A stretch of 64,000 nt of DNA from Hypanus sabinus (lineage: Eukaryota): the NCBI RefSeq assembly GCF_030144855.1, contig NC_082713.1:131006001-131070000 (forward strand), read 5' to 3'. The notes under the pieces are model-generated. The model was not told the DNA's origin, did no database searches, and saw only the letters and a list, made by a program, of their open reading frames with translations. Positions 12,470 through 58,714 of the stretch are shown in pieces. Each line of letters begins with the position of its first letter. The first letter of the stretch is position 1. The translations under genes and the position numbers were made by a program.

Positions 12470-13950
12470 TTATGATTGATTCAAGGTTGATAAGACTGAA
12501 CCCCTGAGGAGAGCCACTGGCGAGAGCTGCTCCTTGGTCATCTCCAAGGCTGAGATACTTAAAACACTCCAGCGGGTCAACAGCCACAAGGCAGCGGGGC
12601 CGGACAGCACCCCAGGGCGAGTCCTCAAAGCGTGTGCGGAACAGCTGGCTGGTGTGCTGACGGACATTTTTAATCTCCCTCTCTCTCTCTCTCTCTCTCT
12701 TCCCCAGTGTGTAGTGTCCTCCTGTTTCAAATCATCCATCTTTGTCCCTGTACCGAAAAACACCAAGGTAGCATGCCTGAACTCACCTCAATTATAAGCA
12801 AATGTTTTGGGAGACTGGTGAAGGACTATATCTGCCATATGCTACCGCCCACACTGGGCCAACTACTGAAGGAACTGGTCTACCGATGACGCCATAGCCA
12901 CAGCACTACACACCATCCTCACTCACCTGGAGAAGAGGGATGCTGTTCCTGGACTACAGTTCTGCATTCTAAACATAATTCCCTACAGACTTGACAGGAA
13001 GCTCAGAGACCTCGGACTGCATGCTGCCTTGGATCGTCGACAGGTGGGAAGGATGGGCTCCCTCATCTCTGCCCCTGCCCCTCAACACAGGTGCCCCCCA
13101 GGGTTGTCCCGAGTCCCCTCATCTACTCACCTTACTCCCATGACTGTCCTGCCCCACACAGCTCCAATCTGCAGATCAAATTCGCAGATGACACAACTTT
13201 GATCAGCCTTATTTCCTGTGGTGATGAGACAGCCTACGAAGGAGAGGTTGACACTCTGACACAGTAATACCAGGATAATAACCTCTCCCTCAATGTCCAG
13301 ATAACAAAAGAACTGATTGTGGATTACAGAAGGAACAGAGACAGGCTCACTCCAATCAACACCAATGGGTCTGCAGGTGAGAGGGTGAGCAGTTTCAAGT
13401 TCCTCAGTATGCACATCACCAATGGTCTCACCTGGACTGTACACACCGGCTGTGTGGCAAAAAAAGCACAATGGTGTCTCTTCCATCTCAGGCGACTGAA
13501 GAAGTTCAACATGGGCCCCCAAATCCTCAAGACCTTCTATAGGGGCACAATTGAGAGCATCCTGACTGGCTTTATCACCACCTGGTACAGGAACTGCACC
13601 AACCTTGATCACTGGGTGCTGCAGAGAGTGCTACAGACAGCACATTGCATCTGTGGATGTGAACATCCCCCCATTGAGGATACTTACAGCAACAGGTGCG
13701 TAAAGAAGGCCTGGAAGATCATTGGGGACACCAGTCACCCCAACCATGAACTGTTTCAGTTGCTTCCGTCTGGCAAACAGTACTGCAGCATTAAAGCCAG
13801 GAACAACAGTCTATGGGACAGTTTCTTTCTACAAGCCATAAGACTTATAAATTCACAAGTCTGTACATTGCGACAGAGTCATAACACAAAGATTTTTACT
13901 CCCTCACGTTGTGGGATGGATGTAAGATTTAAATAAATAAATTCAAATTC
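12470..13950 (+). mobile_element. Rex1/Babar LINE, 5'-truncated, frameshifted RT
   Basis: [34 protein letters not shown]; [12 protein letters not shown]; KFADDTT (aaattcgcagatgacaca); ORF 13319..13936 C-terminal region; tail aaataaataaattcaaattc. Confidence 0.9.
12679..12700. repeat. (CT)n microsatellite expanded inside the Rex1 RT
   Basis: ctctctctctctctctctctct where the element normally encodes a short LSL stretch. Confidence 0.85.
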
Positions 13951-23829: not shown

Positions 23830-24786
23830 GCACTGGAGGACTCTATTTGCAAGTTTATGGAGAACTGAAAGATTGTAAATATCTCTCCGCACTTTAAGAA
23901 GGGAGGGAGGCAGAAGAAAGGAAATCATAGGCTAGTTAGCCTGACATCAGTAGTTGGGAAGATGTTGTCCATTACTAAGGATGAGGTTTAGGGATTCTTG
24001 CAGGAACAAAGCAAAATACAAAGTCAGCATGGTTTCCTTAAGGGGAACACTTGCCTGACAAATCTTGGAATTCTTTGAGGAAACAACAAGCAAGATGTAC
24101 AAAGGAGAGCCAGTGAATGTTGTTTGCTTAGATTTTCAGAAGGCCTTTGATACGGTGCCATTCATGAGGCTGTTTAACAAAAAAAAAGAGAGTCCATGGG
24201 TATTACGGTGAAGATGCTAGTATGGATAGAAGATTGGCTGACTAGCATGAGGTAAAGTGTAGGAATTAAGGGGGCCTTTTCTGGTTGGCTGTCAGTGACT
24301 GGTGGTGTTCAACAGGGGTTGGTGTTGGGACTAATTTAGAAGAATGAAGGAGGACCTCATTGAAATCTTTTGAATATTGAAAGTTCTGGATAGAGTGGAT
24401 GTGGGGGAGATGTGGGTGAGTCCCGAAACAAAAGGGCACAACATCAAACCAAAGGGATGTCCATTTAGAACAGAGAAGAGGAGGAATTTCTTCAGCCAGA
24501 GCCATCAAACGCTCCTCATGTGTTAACTCTTCATTCCCTGAATCATTCTCATGAACCTCTAGCACATCATTTCTTAGATAAGGGACCCAAAACTGCTCAC
24601 AATACTCCAAGTGCAGTTTGACCAATGCCAATACTATATACTGTGAAAAGAAGTAGTCCCAACACCAACCCCTGTTGAACACCACCAGTCACTGACAGCC
24701 AACCAGAAAAGGCCCCCTTAATTCCTACACTTTACCTCATGCTAGTCAGCCAATCTTCTATCCATACTAGCATCTTCACCGTAATA
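23830..24786 (+). mobile_element. Rearranged CR1 RT fragment containing an inverted duplication
   Basis: CR1 RT motifs (ataggctagttagcctgacatcag; cagcatggtttccttaagggg; ttagattttcagaaggcctttgat). Segment 24500-24786 is in the opposite orientation. Confidence 0.85.
24201..24786. repeat. Perfect 133-bp inverted repeat (arms 24201-24333 and 24654-24786, 320-bp spacer)
   Basis: Base-by-base comparison by eye found no mismatch between tattacggtg...gttgggacta and the reverse complement of tagtcccaac...caccgtaata. Confidence 0.95.
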
Positions 24787-32003: not shown

Positions 32004-32218
32004 TGTAGCGATGTGCTACACACAGCGCTGAAATAACGACACACAGTTAGTAAGTCGTTTCGAGACTAGTTTATTCAAACTTCGCGGCGCTGGCATTTAA
32101 ATCCTTAAAGCCCGCCCTCTCCGGGCGGAAATGACATTGGAGGTGCATTACCAAAGACTCCCCCCACACGCTGGCTATTTGTGAGCTGGTTCACCTGTGC
32201 AGAAAGTGGTTCGCCACA
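32004..32218 (-). repeat. 3' LTR (215 bp)
   Basis: tgtagcgatg...tcgccaca; AATAAA on the minus strand (gtttattc); adjacent PPT. Confidence 0.95.
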
Positions 32219-32220
32219 TA

Positions 32221-32230
32221 ACCCCCCCCA
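32221..32230 (-). promoter_or_regulatory. Polypurine tract
   Basis: Minus strand reads TGGGGGGGGT-TA immediately before the 3' LTR. Confidence 0.85.
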
Positions 32231-32241
32231 GAACCGGCGAT

Positions 32242-33310
32242 TCACCCCCCAATGTCCACAGTCTGGATCAGCCTCTGTTTGGGAGGTCTGCCTCTGCGGC
32301 GCGGTGTCTGAACCTCGACCGGCTGCGCCAAGTCCACATGGGCTGGTTTGAGTCGGTCCACTGTGAAAACCTCCTCTCTCCCCCCATGTCCAGAACGTAA
32401 GTGGACCCGTTGTTGTTGATCACCTTGAATTGCCCCTTGTACAGCCGCTGTAGCGGCGCCCGGAGTCCGCCCTTTCATACAAACACAAACTTACAGTTTT
32501 GCAGGTCTTTGGGTACATGGGTCGGGGTCCGTCCGTGCTGTGAAGTCGGTACGGGGCTAGGTTGCCGAGCCTTTCATGTAGCCTGTCCAGGACTGCTGCG
32601 GGTTCTTCCTCTTGCCCCCTTGGGGCTGGTATGAACTCTCCCAGGACGGCCAGGGGCGCACGGTATACCAACTCGGCCAACGAGGCGTGCAGATCCTCTT
32701 TGGGCACTGTACGAATTCCAAGCAGGACCCAGGGAAGCTCGTCCACCCGGTTAGGTCCTCTCAGGCGGGCCATGAGAGCCGACTTCAAGTGACGGTGGAA
32801 GCGTTCCACTAGTCCGTTCGACTGTGGATGGTAGGTAGTAGTGTGGTGCAGCTGCGTTCCCAACAGGCTGGCCACAGCTGACCACAGGCTGGAGGTGAAC
32901 TGGGCACCTCTGTCGGAGGTAATGTGGGCCGGTACCCCGAAGCGTGCTACCCAGGTTGCGATCAGTGCTCGGGCGCAGGAATCGGCAGATGTGTCGGTGA
33001 GTGGGACCGCCTCTGGCCACCTCGTGAACTGGTCTACCATAGTTAGGAGCAACTGCGCTCCTTGGGACACTGGTAGGGGGCCCACGATATCCACATGAAT
33101 ATGGTCGAACCTCCGGTAGGTGGGTTCGAACTGCTGCGGCGGGGCTTTAGTGTGCCGCTGCACCTTGGCTGTTTGGCACTGCGCGCACGTTCTGACCCAT
33201 TCACTGACCTGCTTGCGAAGTCCATGCCACGCGAACTTGCTGGAGACCAGCTGGATGGTTGTCCTGATAGATGGGTGCGCCAAACCATGTATGGAGTCGA
33301 AAACTCACCG
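32242..33310 (-). pseudogene. Gypsy integrase (frameshifted near the C-terminus)
   Basis: HGLAHP...CAQC zinc-binding motif; HIHVDIVGPLP, ITSDRGAQFTS, HPQSNGLVERFH (D,D35E); C-terminal VFTVDRLKPAH. Confidence 0.9.
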
Positions 33311-34020
33311 CCTCCAGGCTGCCGGGACGATGGGGCGAGGTTGGCTGGTAGCCACATCGCACAGGAGGGTCCTCTCACCTGGGCCTACGAGAAAGTCCTG
33401 CAGCTGCAAACCCGAGACTGCACTCCTGTAGCTGGGCATCTCGTCGTCTGCCTGCTGCGCCTCCGCCAGTGCTGCATAGTCCACCCCCAGGGACAGGGCC
33501 TGGTCAGCTGGTCTGGAGAGTGTGTCCGCCACGACATTGTCCTTTCCCGAGACATGCTGGATGTCAGTCGTGTACTCGGAGATGTAGGACAGATGTCGCT
33601 GCTGGTGAACCGACCAGGGATCGGACACCTTCGTGAACGCGAAGGTCAACGGTTTGTGGTCTGTGAACACAGTGAACGGCCTGTCTTCTAAGAAGTACCT
33701 GAAATGCCGGATTGCCAGATACAGTGCCAACAGCTCCCGGTCGAAGGCACTGTACTTGAGTTCAGGTGATCGTAGGTGTTTGCTGAAGAATGCCAGGGGT
33801 AGCCAGTGCCCCTCAATGAGCTGCTCCAGCACCCCACTGACTGCTGTGTCGGATGCGTCCACTGTGAGGGCAGTCGGGACATCCGTTCTGGGGTGCACCA
33901 GCATTGCGGCATCTGCCAAGGCTTCCTTAGCTTTAACGAAAGCGGCCGCGGCCTCCTCGTCCCAAGTAATGTCCTTGCCTTTACCCGACATCAGGGTGTA
34001 CAAACGGCGCATGATACAGG
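33305..34020 (-). pseudogene. Gypsy RT connection and RNase H
   Basis: LTVDASDTAVSGVLEQ, FFSKHL, YSAFDRELLALY, FTDHKPL, GKDNVVADTLSR. Confidence 0.9.
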
Positions 34021-35260
34021 CGCTGAGGGGAGGAGACGGTGGTAGAAGTTCACCATACCAATGCACTCCTGCAGGCCTTTGACCACGTTGGGCCGGGCAA
34101 AGTGGCGGATCGAGTCTACCTTGGCGGGCAGAGGTGTTGCCCCATCTTTGGCAATCCTGTGGCCCAGGAAGTCGATGGTATCGAGACCGAACTGGCATTT
34201 AGCCGGGTTGATCGTGAACCCGAAATCACTCAGGCAAGAGTAGAGCTGGCAGAGGTGAGACAGATGCTCCTGACGACAACTGCTGGCTATTAGGATATCG
34301 TCCAAATAGATGAACGCAAAGTCCAGGTCGCGTCTCACCGCGTCCATTAGCCGCTGGAATATCTGTGCGGCATTCTTTAAGCTGAACGGCATTTGGAGGA
34401 ACTCGAACCGGGTGATGAGTGCTGTTTTGTGGATGTCTTCAGTGTGCACCGGGATTTGATGGTATCCCCGGATGAGGTCCACTTTGGAAAAGATTCTTGC
34501 CCTGTGCAGGTTTGCTGCAAAGTCCTGTATGTGCGGCACGGGGTAGCGGTCTGGAGTTGTAGCCTCATTCAGACTGCAGTAGTCGCCGCATGGTCTCCAA
34601 CCCCCGGCTGCTTTGGGCACCATGTGCAGGGGGGAGGCCCATGGGCTGTACGACCTCCATACGATCCCCAGTTCCTCCATCCTCTTGAACTCCTCCTTCG
34701 CCAGGTGGAGCTTTTCCGGGGGGAGCCTTCGTGCGCAGGCATGGAGGGGTGGTCCCTGGGTCGGAATGTGGTGCTGTACCCCGCATCTGGGCACAGCTGC
34801 AGTGAACTGCGGTGCCTGAATCAATGGAAAGTCCACCAAGATTCTGGTGAATTCATTGTCCGACAGCGTGATGGAGTCCAGGTGTGGGGCCAGCAACTTG
34901 ACTTCACCCAGGGGGAATGTCTGGAAAGTCTCGGCATGTACCAGTCTTTTCCCTTGCAAGTCAACCAGCAGGTTGTGAGCTCGCAAGAAGTCTACCCCCA
35001 GGAGTGGTTGGGCCACGGTGGCCAGTGTGAAGTCCCACATGAACCAGCTGGCGCTGAACTGCAGCTGCACTGTGCGGGTGCGTAGGTCTGTATTGTGCTG
35101 CTGTTTGCGGCCCTCAGGGTGGGTCCTGGCGTCCTGTTGTGGGTGTTGTACCCCATCGGGGGCAAGATGCTGATCTCCGCTCCAGTGTCGACCAAGAAGC
35201 AGCGTCCCAACTGTTAGTCCCAGACGTACAAGAGGCTGTCCTGGTGGCCAGCCGCCATAG
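34020..35260 (-). pseudogene. Gypsy protease and reverse transcriptase (with stop and frameshifts)
   Basis: FLVDTGAEISILP, LLGVDFL, SPWASPLHMVPK, WRPCGDY, FSKVDLIRGYHQIPV, MPFSLKNA, YLDDILI. Confidence 0.92.
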
Positions 35261-35284
35261 TCATTAGCGGCAGCTGGCCCTGGC

Positions 35285-35926
35285 CCTTGCAGGGTGGGCG
35301 ACAACGGCGGGCTTTTGTGCCTCACTGCTGGTGGTAGAAACACCACCGTTCGCTGGCCTCCTCACTCCTGCCTCTGTGTTATGTGTGCCCCCCTGCCGGG
35401 CCTGGTCTGGTCCGCTGTTGGCGCGTGGCCTGGTAATCTGACCGACGGACGCCACACTCTCCCTCTTGGCTTTCCACAGCACGTCTGTCCTGGCCGCCAC
35501 CTTCCGGGGGTCGCTGAAATCTGCGTCGGCCAGCAGCAGATGTATGTCCTCGGGCAGTTGCTCTAGGAACGCTTGCTTGAACATGAGGCAGGGCTTGTGT
35601 CTGTCAGCCAGGGACAGCATCTCATTCATCAGTGCTGATGGCAGTCTGCCTCCCAAACCGTCCAGGTGAAGCAGGCGGGCACCAATGAGCAGCGCCTTGA
35701 ATGCTTCATATTTGCCTTCTTCCGTTGGCGACTGTATGAAATCCGCAACCTGGGCAGACGTCTCCTGGTCAAGGGCGCTCACCATGTGGTAGTAATGTGT
35801 GGAATCAGAGGATATCTGCCGAATCTGGAACTGGGCTTCTGCTTGGCTGAACCACACGCGTGGTTGCAGTGTCCAGAAAGTCGGCAGTTTTAGCGAAACT
35901 GCGTGAACAGATGAAGAGTCGGTCAT
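35285..35926 (-). pseudogene. Gag with CHCC knuckle (frameshifted, one TGA)
   Basis: MTDSSSVHAVSLKLPTFWTLQPRVWFSQAEAQF...FLEQLP; a shifted frame at about 35343-35288 gives WCFYHQQ*GTKARRCRPPC = C-X2-H-X9-C-X3-C. Confidence 0.88.
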
Positions 35927-35950
35927 CTTTGGTCCAAATCCCATTTGGAC

Positions 35951-35964
35951 CGTCGGGGTCACCA
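35951..35964 (-). promoter_or_regulatory. Primer-binding site, tRNA-Trp
   Basis: Minus strand TGGTGACCCCGACG, 1 nt after the 5' LTR, equals the first 14 nt of the canonical tRNA-Trp PBS TGGTGACCCCGACGTGAT. Confidence 0.9.
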
Positions 35965-35965
35965 A

Positions 35966-36179
35966 TGTAGCGATGTGCTACACACAGCACTGAAATAACG
36001 ACACGCAGTCGGTAAGTCGTTTCGAGACTAGTTTATTCAAACTTCGTGGCGCTGGCATTTAAATCCCTAGCGCCCGCCCTCTCCGAGTGGAAATGACGTC
36101 GGAGGTGCATTACCAAAGTCTCCTCCCGCACGCTGGCTACTTATGAGCTGGTTTGCCTGCCAGATAGTGGGTCGCCACA
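35966..36179 (-). repeat. 5' LTR (214 bp)
   Basis: About 22 substitutions and 1 indel versus the 3' LTR by manual count (about 10%), many at CpG sites. Confidence 0.95.
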
Positions 36180-55567: not shown

Positions 55568-56259
55568 AAGTTGGTGATAAGGAGGTGATGTGAGAGCCAT
55601 AAGAACAATGATTACACCACAGGTGCTGACCAGCTACACTTTAATGCAACAAGTACTGGAGTTTGTACTGAAGATTGGCACACCAAGGATTTGGGTCTGC
55701 ATTGAGCTCGTTGGATGCAAGTAAAATTTTCTCAGGTTGCAGTAACCCTCAGTGGAGAGGATTTGTTCAGATCCCAGTCAATGGTTTGTGAGCTTGCAAT
55801 TTTAACAGAAGTGCACTTAAATTTACAGTTTTGGACGGGGACCATCATGACAGCTTTACGTAGGGCAGGAGTGTGCAAATGGTGTCCATGATTCTTGGCA
55901 GTACTGTCCATGACGCTTTTACAGGTTATACAGGTTGAATATCCTTTATCCAAAAATCCAAGATCTGTAAACCTCCAAAGTCCAAAGATTTTTTGAGCGC
56001 TGACATGACAACATAAAATGGAAAATTCCAGAAGGCACTGGAAATGTTCCCAGGTGGCGCACAGATCTGTACACACCACAGACAGTTTTGAGAAGTGACC
56101 TCATATATGCAATGAATAGAAGTTAATGAAAAATAGAAAAACACTGCACAAAGTGAAAATGATCTTGATTGTGTATTGAAAGAGTGGATTCATCATAAAT
56201 GGAGTGAATATACTGTATGCCGCTTAAAAATATGCTTATCATGAAACAAGATCTATCAG

Positions 56260-57802
56260 AAAAATCCTTGAACCCACCTTCCACACCTCTAAATTAAAAC
56301 ATGTCTACACCAGCCCCTTAGCCCTACCACCATCAGCCTCGCAACCCCTCCCACATAAACCCCACAGCACCCAGGTTTATCAAGGTGAATTATATCTTCA
56401 TGGTGATGTTACGAACGTGCCACAACTCTGAGGGGCCAAAGGGTACAAAGTAGCCCCCTCCTTTTTGAGAATCACAAGATCGCTATTAATTCAGGTCAGG
56501 AGACCCAGGAAATGAGAGAGAGACATGCAGAATCCTCAAGGGGTTTGGAATGTCCTGGCCCCTCAGCGATACAAAGCCACGGGAAACGGCTATTGTCTCT
56601 TGGAGACAGAATTGTGTATTGAGTACTGTGCTATTTATTTGAAGCCCTCAGGGAATGAACAAAGTGGGCTGGTTGAGGGATGGCATCATTCCAACCTGAT
56701 TGACATCTGAGACCCCGTAAGGATAAAAGAAGGTCTGGGGAACAACCCCTTTAGACGCACCAGGAGAAACGCTAGAAATCCCGTGACAGCGTTTAATAGC
56801 GACAGCCGGTGGGGCCCGCAAGCGTCCTTTCCCGTTGTCCGGGATTGGCGGGACTGACCCGGAAGACAGCTTAGCTAAAAGGAAAAGGACACCAACGACA
56901 TTTCGAAGGATCGACATCATAAAAAGGAAAAACTCTGGCAAGTTCCAAAACCTGTCTCTCTCTTGACTCCAACCAAAAGCTGCAGCCTGAATGAACTAAA
57001 GTGACTTTTATATTTCCAACAGACAATACATTATCCCCTAGACAATGACAGAGCTATTTCTTATTGATTATTATTATACCCGCGCTTTTAGATTTAGTAT
57101 TGACAATGTATATTATCTGTATGTTTGCATTGATATTATTTTTGTGTATTTTTATCAATAAATACTGTTAAAAATAGTACCATCAGACTTCAACGGACCT
57201 CTCTATCTTTGCTGGTAAGTGACCCAGTTACGGTGTACATAACAACTTGGGGTTCTCGTCTCGAGGTGAATTATATCTTCATGGTGAGAAGACTTTTGGA
57301 CTTGCGCACTGTTCGAGGTGTTTGGCAATACCTCGTGGACCGGGAATGGTTCAAACCCAAGCCGAGGTGCTGGGTGCCTGAAAGAGCACCCAGACATTTT
57401 GGATCTGGCTCTCATCCACGATTACCATCACCACTTCTCTGAGCAGCCAGGGCCGTCAGGAGTCACCATAGGGAAGGGGGTCCTGTTACAAGATGCTCCC
57501 AATTGTGTCAGCTTCTGGGATTTAGACTCTTGAGCTCTCCAGAGTATGGTTAGTTGGTGCAGCCCCTTTAAGGGTTCAGGACAGTCCTGCTAATTGGTAA
57601 TCATGTTTTGGGTGCTAAGAATCGAGTACTTAAGGAACTCCTGAACTGAAGTTTGGTGCTCATTCGTAAGCATGACTCATGATTTCCTCTAGTGTTTGCT
57701 TTGTGCTCAGTTCATGATCCAGTTTGATTCCATGTCTTGATCTGTAGTTCGGATACTCCAGCATTTGGGTCCAAGCCAATCTAGTTGAGGACTCTCGTCA
57801 CA
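56260..57802 (+). mobile_element. Chromovirus (Sushi-like Gypsy) 3' remnant: integrase tail, chromodomain, PPT and 3' LTR (57484-57802)
   Basis: PTFHTSKLKHV..SPLALPP (about 56275); YIFMVRRLLDLRTVRGVWQYLVDREWFKPKPRCWVP / DILDLALIHDYH; PPT agggaaggggg at 57470-57480; LTR tgttaca...cgtcaca. Confidence 0.8.
56407..57263 (+). mobile_element. Single 838-bp LTR (56407-57244) plus a 19-nt PBS-like stub, flanked by a 24-bp direct duplication
   Basis: tgttacg...cataaca ends; ggataaaag TATA-like box and AATAAA in + orientation; stub act-tggggttctcgtctcg; aggtgaattatatcttcatggtga at 56383-56406 and 57264-57287. Confidence 0.85.
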
Positions 57803-58714
57803 TGCCAAGCTTGTCGCTGATGAAAATCTAGCTCCAGAATGAGTCTTCAATGCTGTTTGTTTTTATTCCTTATGCAAAACCTAAAATAAAACTTAAAATA
57901 CAAATACAGTGTACTGTAACTTTTAATCAAAACATGGCATCAAAAGTGGAGACTGAATGACTGCTGTAGTTTGTTGTTGTTCAACATCTGATTCAGGTAG
58001 CCTCCTGATGCTGCTGCACTGCTTTTGTTACCCTTCACACATTATACAGTAATGGTATGTAAAAACTGCTACTGTTAAGCACACGCGTGTGATGAACAAG
58101 TGTAAGACAAAGACTGCTTACCTGTAGCACATGAATTTCGAGTCGGAAATGTTGGCGATTCCCAAATTATATACAGTATATTATATGGTATATAAAAGTA
58201 CATAATATATATTATTCATGTATATTATATTTTAAATAAAAATAATATTCCAAAATCCAAAATTCAGAACATTCTATCCCCGAGCATTTCGGATAAAGGG
58301 TACTCAACCTGTAAACCACATTAGTATTGTTAGACTGCTTTTTTAATCTTCATTCTTCATCGACTGTAGTGTCCAGCTGAGTACTGGGAACAACAAATCA
58401 TCATCTCCCATCATTGCCACTGACCATAACCACATCCCTGGTAACTGTCTCAGATTGTTTACAATCTCTACTTACAACTTAGCCTGAACATGGTTCACAA
58501 ATCCATATGTTCACCATCACATAAGTTATCTGCTTCCTCCTGTGTAACAGTACCCACCTGCAATCTGACAGGTAAAAAAGGATCCTGTGCTTTCCCAGCA
58601 AATATGATACATAAACTCTTCTTGTTCTTCCACCCGGGTCCAGGTGTCAATTTTAACCAACGCTTCAATGACAGCCTCCGCCATATTTATCAGGATGAAT
58701 GCCTAGACATGCCT

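Follow-up and report, generated by a model that had tools for sequence, protein, structure and literature searches.

The closest described counterparts of an LTR followed by only part of a PBS are plus-strand strong-stop DNA and the products of one-ended integration. In the account of PMC13191261, the end of retroviral plus-strand strong-stop DNA is copied from the 3′ 18 nt of the primer tRNA; according to PMC5371799, the end in Ty3 is copied from 12 nt of the tRNA, and the PBS of both Ty1 and Ty3 is not inherited from the tRNA. In one-ended integrations, as characterized in PMC5041404, one end is a normal integrase product and the far end is truncated, usually with short homology, and host DNA is either duplicated or deleted; a 273-bp duplication with one defective end has been described in an XMRV clone (PMC2857682). 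In the open-access literature, supplements excluded, we found no report of a natural endogenous LTR-plus-PBS stub with a long duplication, nor of switching between bulged and tRNA-perfect PBS forms.

Here we describe a locus in a stretch of 64,000 nt of the Hypanus sabinus genome (the window, whose coordinates are used throughout), which a preliminary description had read as a possible capture of plus-strand strong-stop cDNA. Our preferred reading, to which we give a probability of roughly one half, is that a cDNA already past second-strand transfer was integrated by one end, with host repair finishing at the mismatched PBS; so read, the locus is one event of a class already known, unusual in where the break lies.

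Structure of the locus

The structure of the locus is real: an LTR plus 19 nt stands between exact 24-mers. As first described, a complete TG..CA LTR at 56407-57244 (838 nt; first letters TGTTACG, last letters CATAACA) is followed by a 19-nt stub, and the exact 24-bp repeats that bracket the unit are host chromovirus sequence. By direct comparison within the window, the 24-mers at 56383-56406 and 57264-57287 are identical with no extension either way, and the window holds no further exact direct repeat of at least 20 nt within 3 kb, save a period-2 simple repeat at 12679. The count of N in the window is 0. The insert at 56407-57263 has no predicted function, the locus being one inert event. 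Its features, all on the plus strand, are as follows.

56273..56406, plus strand: left host piece, decayed chromovirus integrase C-terminal region, 5′-truncated at 56273; paralogues match from about 56273
56383..56406, plus strand: left copy of the 24-bp host duplication, identical to 57264-57287; single in 12 of 14 paralogues
56407, plus strand: integrase-type U3 junction of the LTR; TG start in register with family LTRs
56407..57244, plus strand: complete 838-bp LTR of a probable gag-pro-only SCAN-Gag Gypsy family; ends in register with 29 other loci
57157..57162, plus strand: AATAAA as read from the letters, likely the LTR polyadenylation signal
57245..57247, plus strand: 3-nt spacer from LTR end to PBS; same in 93 bulged-PBS places and many tRNA-perfect copies
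57248..57263, plus strand: first 16 nt of the 20-nt bulged tRNA-Pro PBS, in the genomic and not the tRNA-copied form
57264..57265, plus strand: AG, possible 2-nt junction microhomology, within a stretch where PBS end and host match imperfectly, at 4 of 5 letters
57264..57287, plus strand: right copy of the 24-bp host duplication, identical to 56383-56406
57264..57802, plus strand: right host piece, chromodomain remnant; paralogues 71-78% alike to about 57802
57471..57480, plus strand: host purine tract within the right host piece
from 57484, plus strand: host LTR; one paralogue (L207) matches 57484-57800 alone

The AG at 57264-57265 can be assigned to insert or host, 46 of 92 family copies reading AG there, and the stub therefore reaches 16 nt into the PBS, or 18 nt if the shared AG is counted. 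A parent of the AG form would give 2 nt of junction homology; AG follows the stub in only 5 of 26 copies of the window's own LTR clade. Across the family, the position of 57264, which is not a CpG site, is dimorphic (46 AG, 41 GG and 5 other among 92), and this A/G dimorphism recurs across clades and spacer types.

The host chromovirus

For the repeat family of the right flank, the best 40 of 703 candidates were scored and 14 paralogues fetched, 12 of which are colinear through the site with one 24-mer region; the other two diverge upstream. Among four stop-free paralogue frames, Pfam Chromo was matched above the cut-off in one (L033, E 1e-8) and below it in L043 and L036, while an upstream frame of paralogue L038 matched SH3_Tf2-1 (E 6e-15) and the window's own decayed host frame gave no Pfam match. 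The arrangement typical of a chromovirus, an integrase C-terminal chromodomain ahead of the PPT and LTR, is present in the host paralogues. Because the paralogues are colinear and carry these domains, the 24-mer is duplicated host DNA within the 3′ end of an old chromovirus, and not sequence internal to the LTR family, the alternative that the preliminary description had raised against itself. Its argument that a plain deletion of a full element would not yield the 24-bp repeat is likewise supported.

The site letters in the 12 paralogues are CG in five, CA in five and TG in two, so that the site was ancestrally a CpG. The derived letters with which the 24-mer begins recur at only one other place (L032/L179; G000:C26, ~132546412), 1.48 Mb away on the same sequence; as a segmental-duplicate empty site it was rejected, there being no colinear flank in 20 kb.

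Two further features of the window were noted. On the minus strand at 32004-36159 is another LTR retrotransposon, which has frames for RT, RNase H and integrase and whose terminal repeats, about 200 bp long, are 90% alike; at the DNA level it matches neither the host fragment nor the LTR at 56407-57244, and it was rejected on that ground as the source of the host fragment. At 24201-24786 is an inverted repeat with 136-nt arms, 99% complementary and 314 nt apart, possibly a young MITE.

Sequencing reads

Could the locus be an artefact, in which a filled and an empty allele were joined by haplotype merging or assembly? None of the 14 sequencing runs listed contains half of the left-flank words, and when contig pieces of four runs were compared over 56200-57900, none of those listed, beyond which lie 7448 more, crossed either junction, as an artefact would predict. 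Contigs of one run (X14) are about 98% alike to the window's right flank. Against an artefact, the LTR is a distinct copy (the next best is 94% alike), the sequence is 174 Mb long and without N in the window, and at the odd junction the overlap does not exceed 2 nt, presumably too short for an assembler to join. We regard an artefact as very unlikely.

Run X14 has both the LTR and the host repeat, and the LTR subfamily may be lineage-restricted. In three other organisms holding the host repeat (runs X6, X2 and X10), no LTR depth at 88% likeness was seen over 56428-57225.

The donor LTR family

The LTR family is high-copy. The best 40 of 7772 genome candidates were scored, and 39 of these 40 matches are other copies, 90-94% alike to the window LTR. 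Of twenty-nine other LTR loci, seven are 5′ LTRs with the stub sequence, or a close variant of it, behind them, three are 3′ LTRs and 19 are solo LTRs, 16 of the last having an exact 4-bp TSD as judged by eye. The first seven two-LTR copies all have exact 4-bp TSDs, with LTR pairs 93.6-97.0% alike and interiors of 1.8-3.8 kb. Gag of the family has a SCAN domain (35.4 bits against a cut-off of 27, in L053) and a CCHC knuckle, a protease-like motif was seen by eye in the interior, and no RT or integrase family match was obtained in the two donor-family copies scanned. Judged by sequence, the donor would be a gag-pro-only SCAN-Gag Gypsy family, and its SCAN-related capsid, of a kind known from Gmr1-like Gypsy elements in the account of PMC4592553, points to that group.

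A plain solo LTR formed by recombination was ruled out at the window locus: a PBS is present and the TSD is not the family's normal one, the duplication being 24 bp versus 4 bp.

The stub PBS and the primer tRNA

At 93 places genome-wide, the window included, the 5′ LTR is followed by the same 19 nt as in the stub (a control pattern gave 0), so 57245-57263 does contain the family's own PBS sequence. This bulged form follows a single spacer at these 93 places and 4-nt spacers at another 109, at least 202 in all (L063-L177, L209-L248). Genes for tRNA-Pro gave 92 pattern matches in the genome, with 8 of 8 fetched loci confirmed, and tRNA-Pro matches the PBS of 142 places with a TAACA end, the tRNA-perfect form. 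Compared with the genomic tRNA-Pro form, the stub has two extra T and one G-to-T change (ungapped identity 8/18), which bears out the imperfect tRNA-Pro match first noticed.

A variant primer tRNA for the bulged PBS was sought by exact searches and found in neither register. In the first, no tRNA gene ends in the bulged form (0 matches). In the second, 12 matches against 11 for the control were the window, four family copies and seven in one minisatellite, and no tRNA was present in the four second-register loci scanned. Being exact, these searches would pass over organelle genes and any gene lacking its final encoded base.

As the stub carries the bulged genomic PBS, it was probably templated by the element's own genome, that is, by the minus strand or by chromosomal DNA. 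This bears directly on the initial proposal that free plus-strand strong-stop DNA was captured whole. The locus does have U3-R-U5 from the first base of the LTR and does stop within the approximately 18 nt of PBS that such DNA would contain; with the shared AG, the stub even takes in exactly 18 nt of the PBS, as long as a tRNA copy would be. The PBS of strong-stop DNA is a copy of the tRNA, however, and the stub differs from the tRNA-Pro complement, with no variant primer gene in either register by exact search. Further, no copy consisting of an LTR plus a perfect PBS alone was found, since the one match in the 142 tRNA-perfect places (L206) is a normal 5′ end, although that search has about half sensitivity. 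A primer RNA that has escaped notice and ends in the bulged sequence would rescue the proposal, which is now unsupported and largely refuted, and to which we give hardly any credence. The broader idea behind it, an abortive product of reverse transcription, is still plausible, at a stage later than was supposed, past second-strand transfer.

Directly beyond the PBS, the leader reads TTGA, four more letters that match tRNA-Pro past the 18-nt PBS and resemble the primer over-extension sequence described for lentiviruses in PMC13191261.

Rarity of the stub

Among the 93 copies, only that of the window stops inside the PBS, and all 92 others run at least 95 nt into the leader, which answers the earlier question of how many other copies consist of LTR and PBS alone. 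Both ends could be traced in 50 of the 92; their TSD, 4 bp as elsewhere in the family, is exact in 37 and has one mismatch in nine, two in three and four in one, with no exact duplication longer than 4 bp in these 50. Twenty-five of the 92 have no complete 3′ end in the 5.6 kb fetched, nine of them belonging to one amplified unit and several being interrupted by insertions. Seven truncated copies break off within the fetched DNA and have a 5′ flank that could be traced; in none of them was a long flank duplication present.

Pattern searches, which catch about half of random breaks, gave a similar picture. The first, for other stops in the PBS region, matched the window alone, and the second gave 14 matches against 8 for its control, of which nine continue, one has an insertion in the PBS, three lack an LTR and one is the window. 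Two candidates were rejected. L206, taken as an 18-nt perfect stub, runs on into the gag of another family, and the eight letters that L191, a sister copy, shares with the 24-mer after its PBS belong to an unrelated insertion of about 680 nt, beyond which the interior resumes. That insertion lies within the PBS of L191 and may be a 5′-truncated CR1-type LINE.

Two other short stubs are known to us. A further sample of 40 copies contained L249 (G000:C24, ~104159140), a sister-subfamily LTR with a perfect PBS and 16 nt of leader, which ends 37 nt past the LTR in unrelated DNA and has no flank duplication in 6.7 kb downstream. The amplified unit (L156-L164), nine near-identical copies on 8 small contigs, consists of half an LTR with some 104 nt of interior; tRNA-Pro matches are present on two of the contigs as well, and the unit may be part of an amplified array.

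A tandem layout, in which a second LTR is again followed by a PBS, was seen directly at L090 and L095, and paired positions suggest the same layout at L094/L095, L075/L076 and L225/L226.

Switching of the PBS across the family

How are the two PBS forms related? An LTR tree was built from the last 330 nt (113 rows, with eight of the nine near-identical amplified copies omitted), a leader tree from 400 nt past the PBS (98 rows, omitting nine amplified and 13 too-short perfect copies) and a combined LTR-plus-leader tree with 79 rows and a midpoint root, which omits two long-branch perfect rows, nine amplified and six damaged copies, and two-thirds of the remaining ACT copies. Sampling was by design and took in 44 of the 142 perfect places and 30 of the 109 four-nt-spacer places. 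In the LTR tree, tRNA-perfect copies are nested among bulged ones in supported clades, and the window, its tip length 0.037, falls in a 27-row clade (support 100/99) in which the remaining 26 rows all have the bulged form. The PBS-form label changes 9 times on the leader tree, with at least 7 changes forced, and again 9 times, at least 7 of them forced, on the combined tree, in which perfect copies are basal and appear again within the bulged lineage.

The simplest reading of these trees is that the bulge arose once and was followed by repeated return to the tRNA form via primer copying, although recombination could add to the mixture of forms. Since perfect PBSs reappear at least seven times inside the bulged lineage, the tRNA is likely the template for the PBS of the family's plus strand. 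Copies with the AAGT spacer fall within the AAAT clade, which fits one bulge origin with a later spacer change; the idea that an unknown primer pasted the bulged PBS behind many spacers was dropped. An imperfect PBS persists in the family despite the repeated reappearance of the tRNA-perfect form.

Proposed mechanism and its rivals

One-ended integration, as we propose it, would begin with a plus strand that supplies the tRNA-perfect PBS and a minus strand that supplies the bulged one, so that fresh cDNA would be mismatched at the PBS, where the plus strand might stall or the duplex be nicked. Integrase would then act at U3, where by established chemistry it joins the minus strand by its 3′ end; it is this strand that has the genomic, bulged PBS. 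Host repair would trim whatever was left unjoined and, primed by a short match lying 24 nt upstream of the initial cut, copy host DNA, giving the long duplication. Second-strand transfer depends on PBS pairing, as set out in PMC6088434, and a mismatch there, if the plus strand carries the tRNA form, would be a reason for a stall or break at this point. Such a heteroduplex is not guaranteed in a Gypsy element, because the PBS of Ty1 and Ty3 is not inherited from the tRNA. The fuller interpretation, in which every new cDNA is mismatched at the PBS and the locus is a germline fossil of one arrested at second-strand transfer, its PBS heteroduplex broken and inserted by one end, is tentative, and we lean towards doubting it.

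Several observations argue for one-ended integration of such a cDNA. A random break would fall within the first 21 of about 3450 interior bases with a computed chance of 0.6%, the stub contains the genomic PBS, and the nested perfect PBSs are as expected of strands that differ in their PBS. The family's usual TSD is 4 bp, and the seven informative truncated copies are all free of a long flank duplication. The one-ended integrase action invoked by the preliminary description also agrees with known anatomy, an integrase-like U3 end with an abnormal far end (PMC5041404). Against our reading, this is a single case chosen by a scan for oddities, and the position in the PBS may be chance; two other short stubs exist in the family (37 nt and about 104 nt); and the microhomology is weak.

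The main rival, which would give the same product, is that a full-length element inserted first with a 4-bp TSD and that a later break was mended by template switching or templated end joining. The switch would go to the empty homologue and resume 24 nt upstream of the insertion point, so that the interior and 3′ LTR were lost and the 24-mer duplicated in one step. The last 4 nt of the 24-mer could then be the old TSD, truncated copies are common in the family (the 25 of 92 above), and the ancestral CpG at the host site could have supplied 3-5 nt of microhomology, although the sole paralogue with the derived 24-mer letters likewise reads CA, a hint that loss of the CpG came earlier. Given the LTR tip length of 0.037, the 24-mers would have remained identical with a chance of about 0.16 if they were equally old, and their exact identity slightly favours a younger rearrangement such as this one. 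Template switching leaves the break position in the PBS unexplained, however, and none of the seven informative truncated copies has a long duplication. We consider it unlikely, if less so than the remaining alternatives.

Alternatively, an ordinary full-length cDNA whose U5 end had failed could have integrated by one end and been resected by about 4.3 kb, stopping in the PBS by chance. The pathway would be the same published one, in which the far end is often truncated (PMC5041404), but it needs the loss of about 85% of the element in addition to the chance stop, and a long duplication combined with an interior break is found in none of the 92 copies (42 of them without a traceable end). This we judge decidedly improbable.

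Implications

One-ended integration is known from cell culture, and a natural germline case that ends at the PBS would mark the point at which reverse transcription failed. The switching of PBS forms may outweigh the locus itself, as it offers a natural route to ask how vertebrate Gypsy elements inherit their PBS. If the fuller, tentative interpretation is true, this Gypsy lineage inherits its PBS from the tRNA as retroviruses do, unlike Ty1 and Ty3, and something selects for an imperfect PBS, perhaps escape from silencing by tRNA fragments or PBS-binding factors. The comparison of tRNA-copied and genomic PBS forms is applicable to any LTR-plus-PBS stub, in other genomes as well.

Comparison with known systems

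The Gmr1-like clade is defined by integrase lying ahead of RT in pol, frames of which the donor copies seen have neither. The donor family does resemble Gmr1-like Gypsy elements, as portrayed in PMC4592553, in its SCAN Gag, CCHC knuckle, tRNA-Pro PBS and 4-bp TSD. With solo LTRs made by LTR-LTR recombination, which are common in the family (19 of 29 loci), the locus shares one complete LTR, but it retains the spacer and PBS and has a duplication of 24 bp, not 4 bp. It is like the plus-strand strong-stop DNA of retroviruses and Ty1/Ty3, in the form described in PMC13191261 and PMC5371799, in that U3-R-U5 is followed by about 18 nt of PBS, yet that PBS is the bulged genomic form and no tRNA copy. 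The anatomy is shared with one-ended retroviral integrations, as reported for ASLV one-bad-end vectors, for HIV-1 under suboptimal strand-transfer inhibitors and for XMRV (PMC5041404, PMC2857682): a precise integrase-type end, a truncated far end, possible short junction homology and a duplication much longer than the TSD. The locus differs from them in being a natural germline Gypsy copy, with nearly all of the element missing and the break in the PBS.
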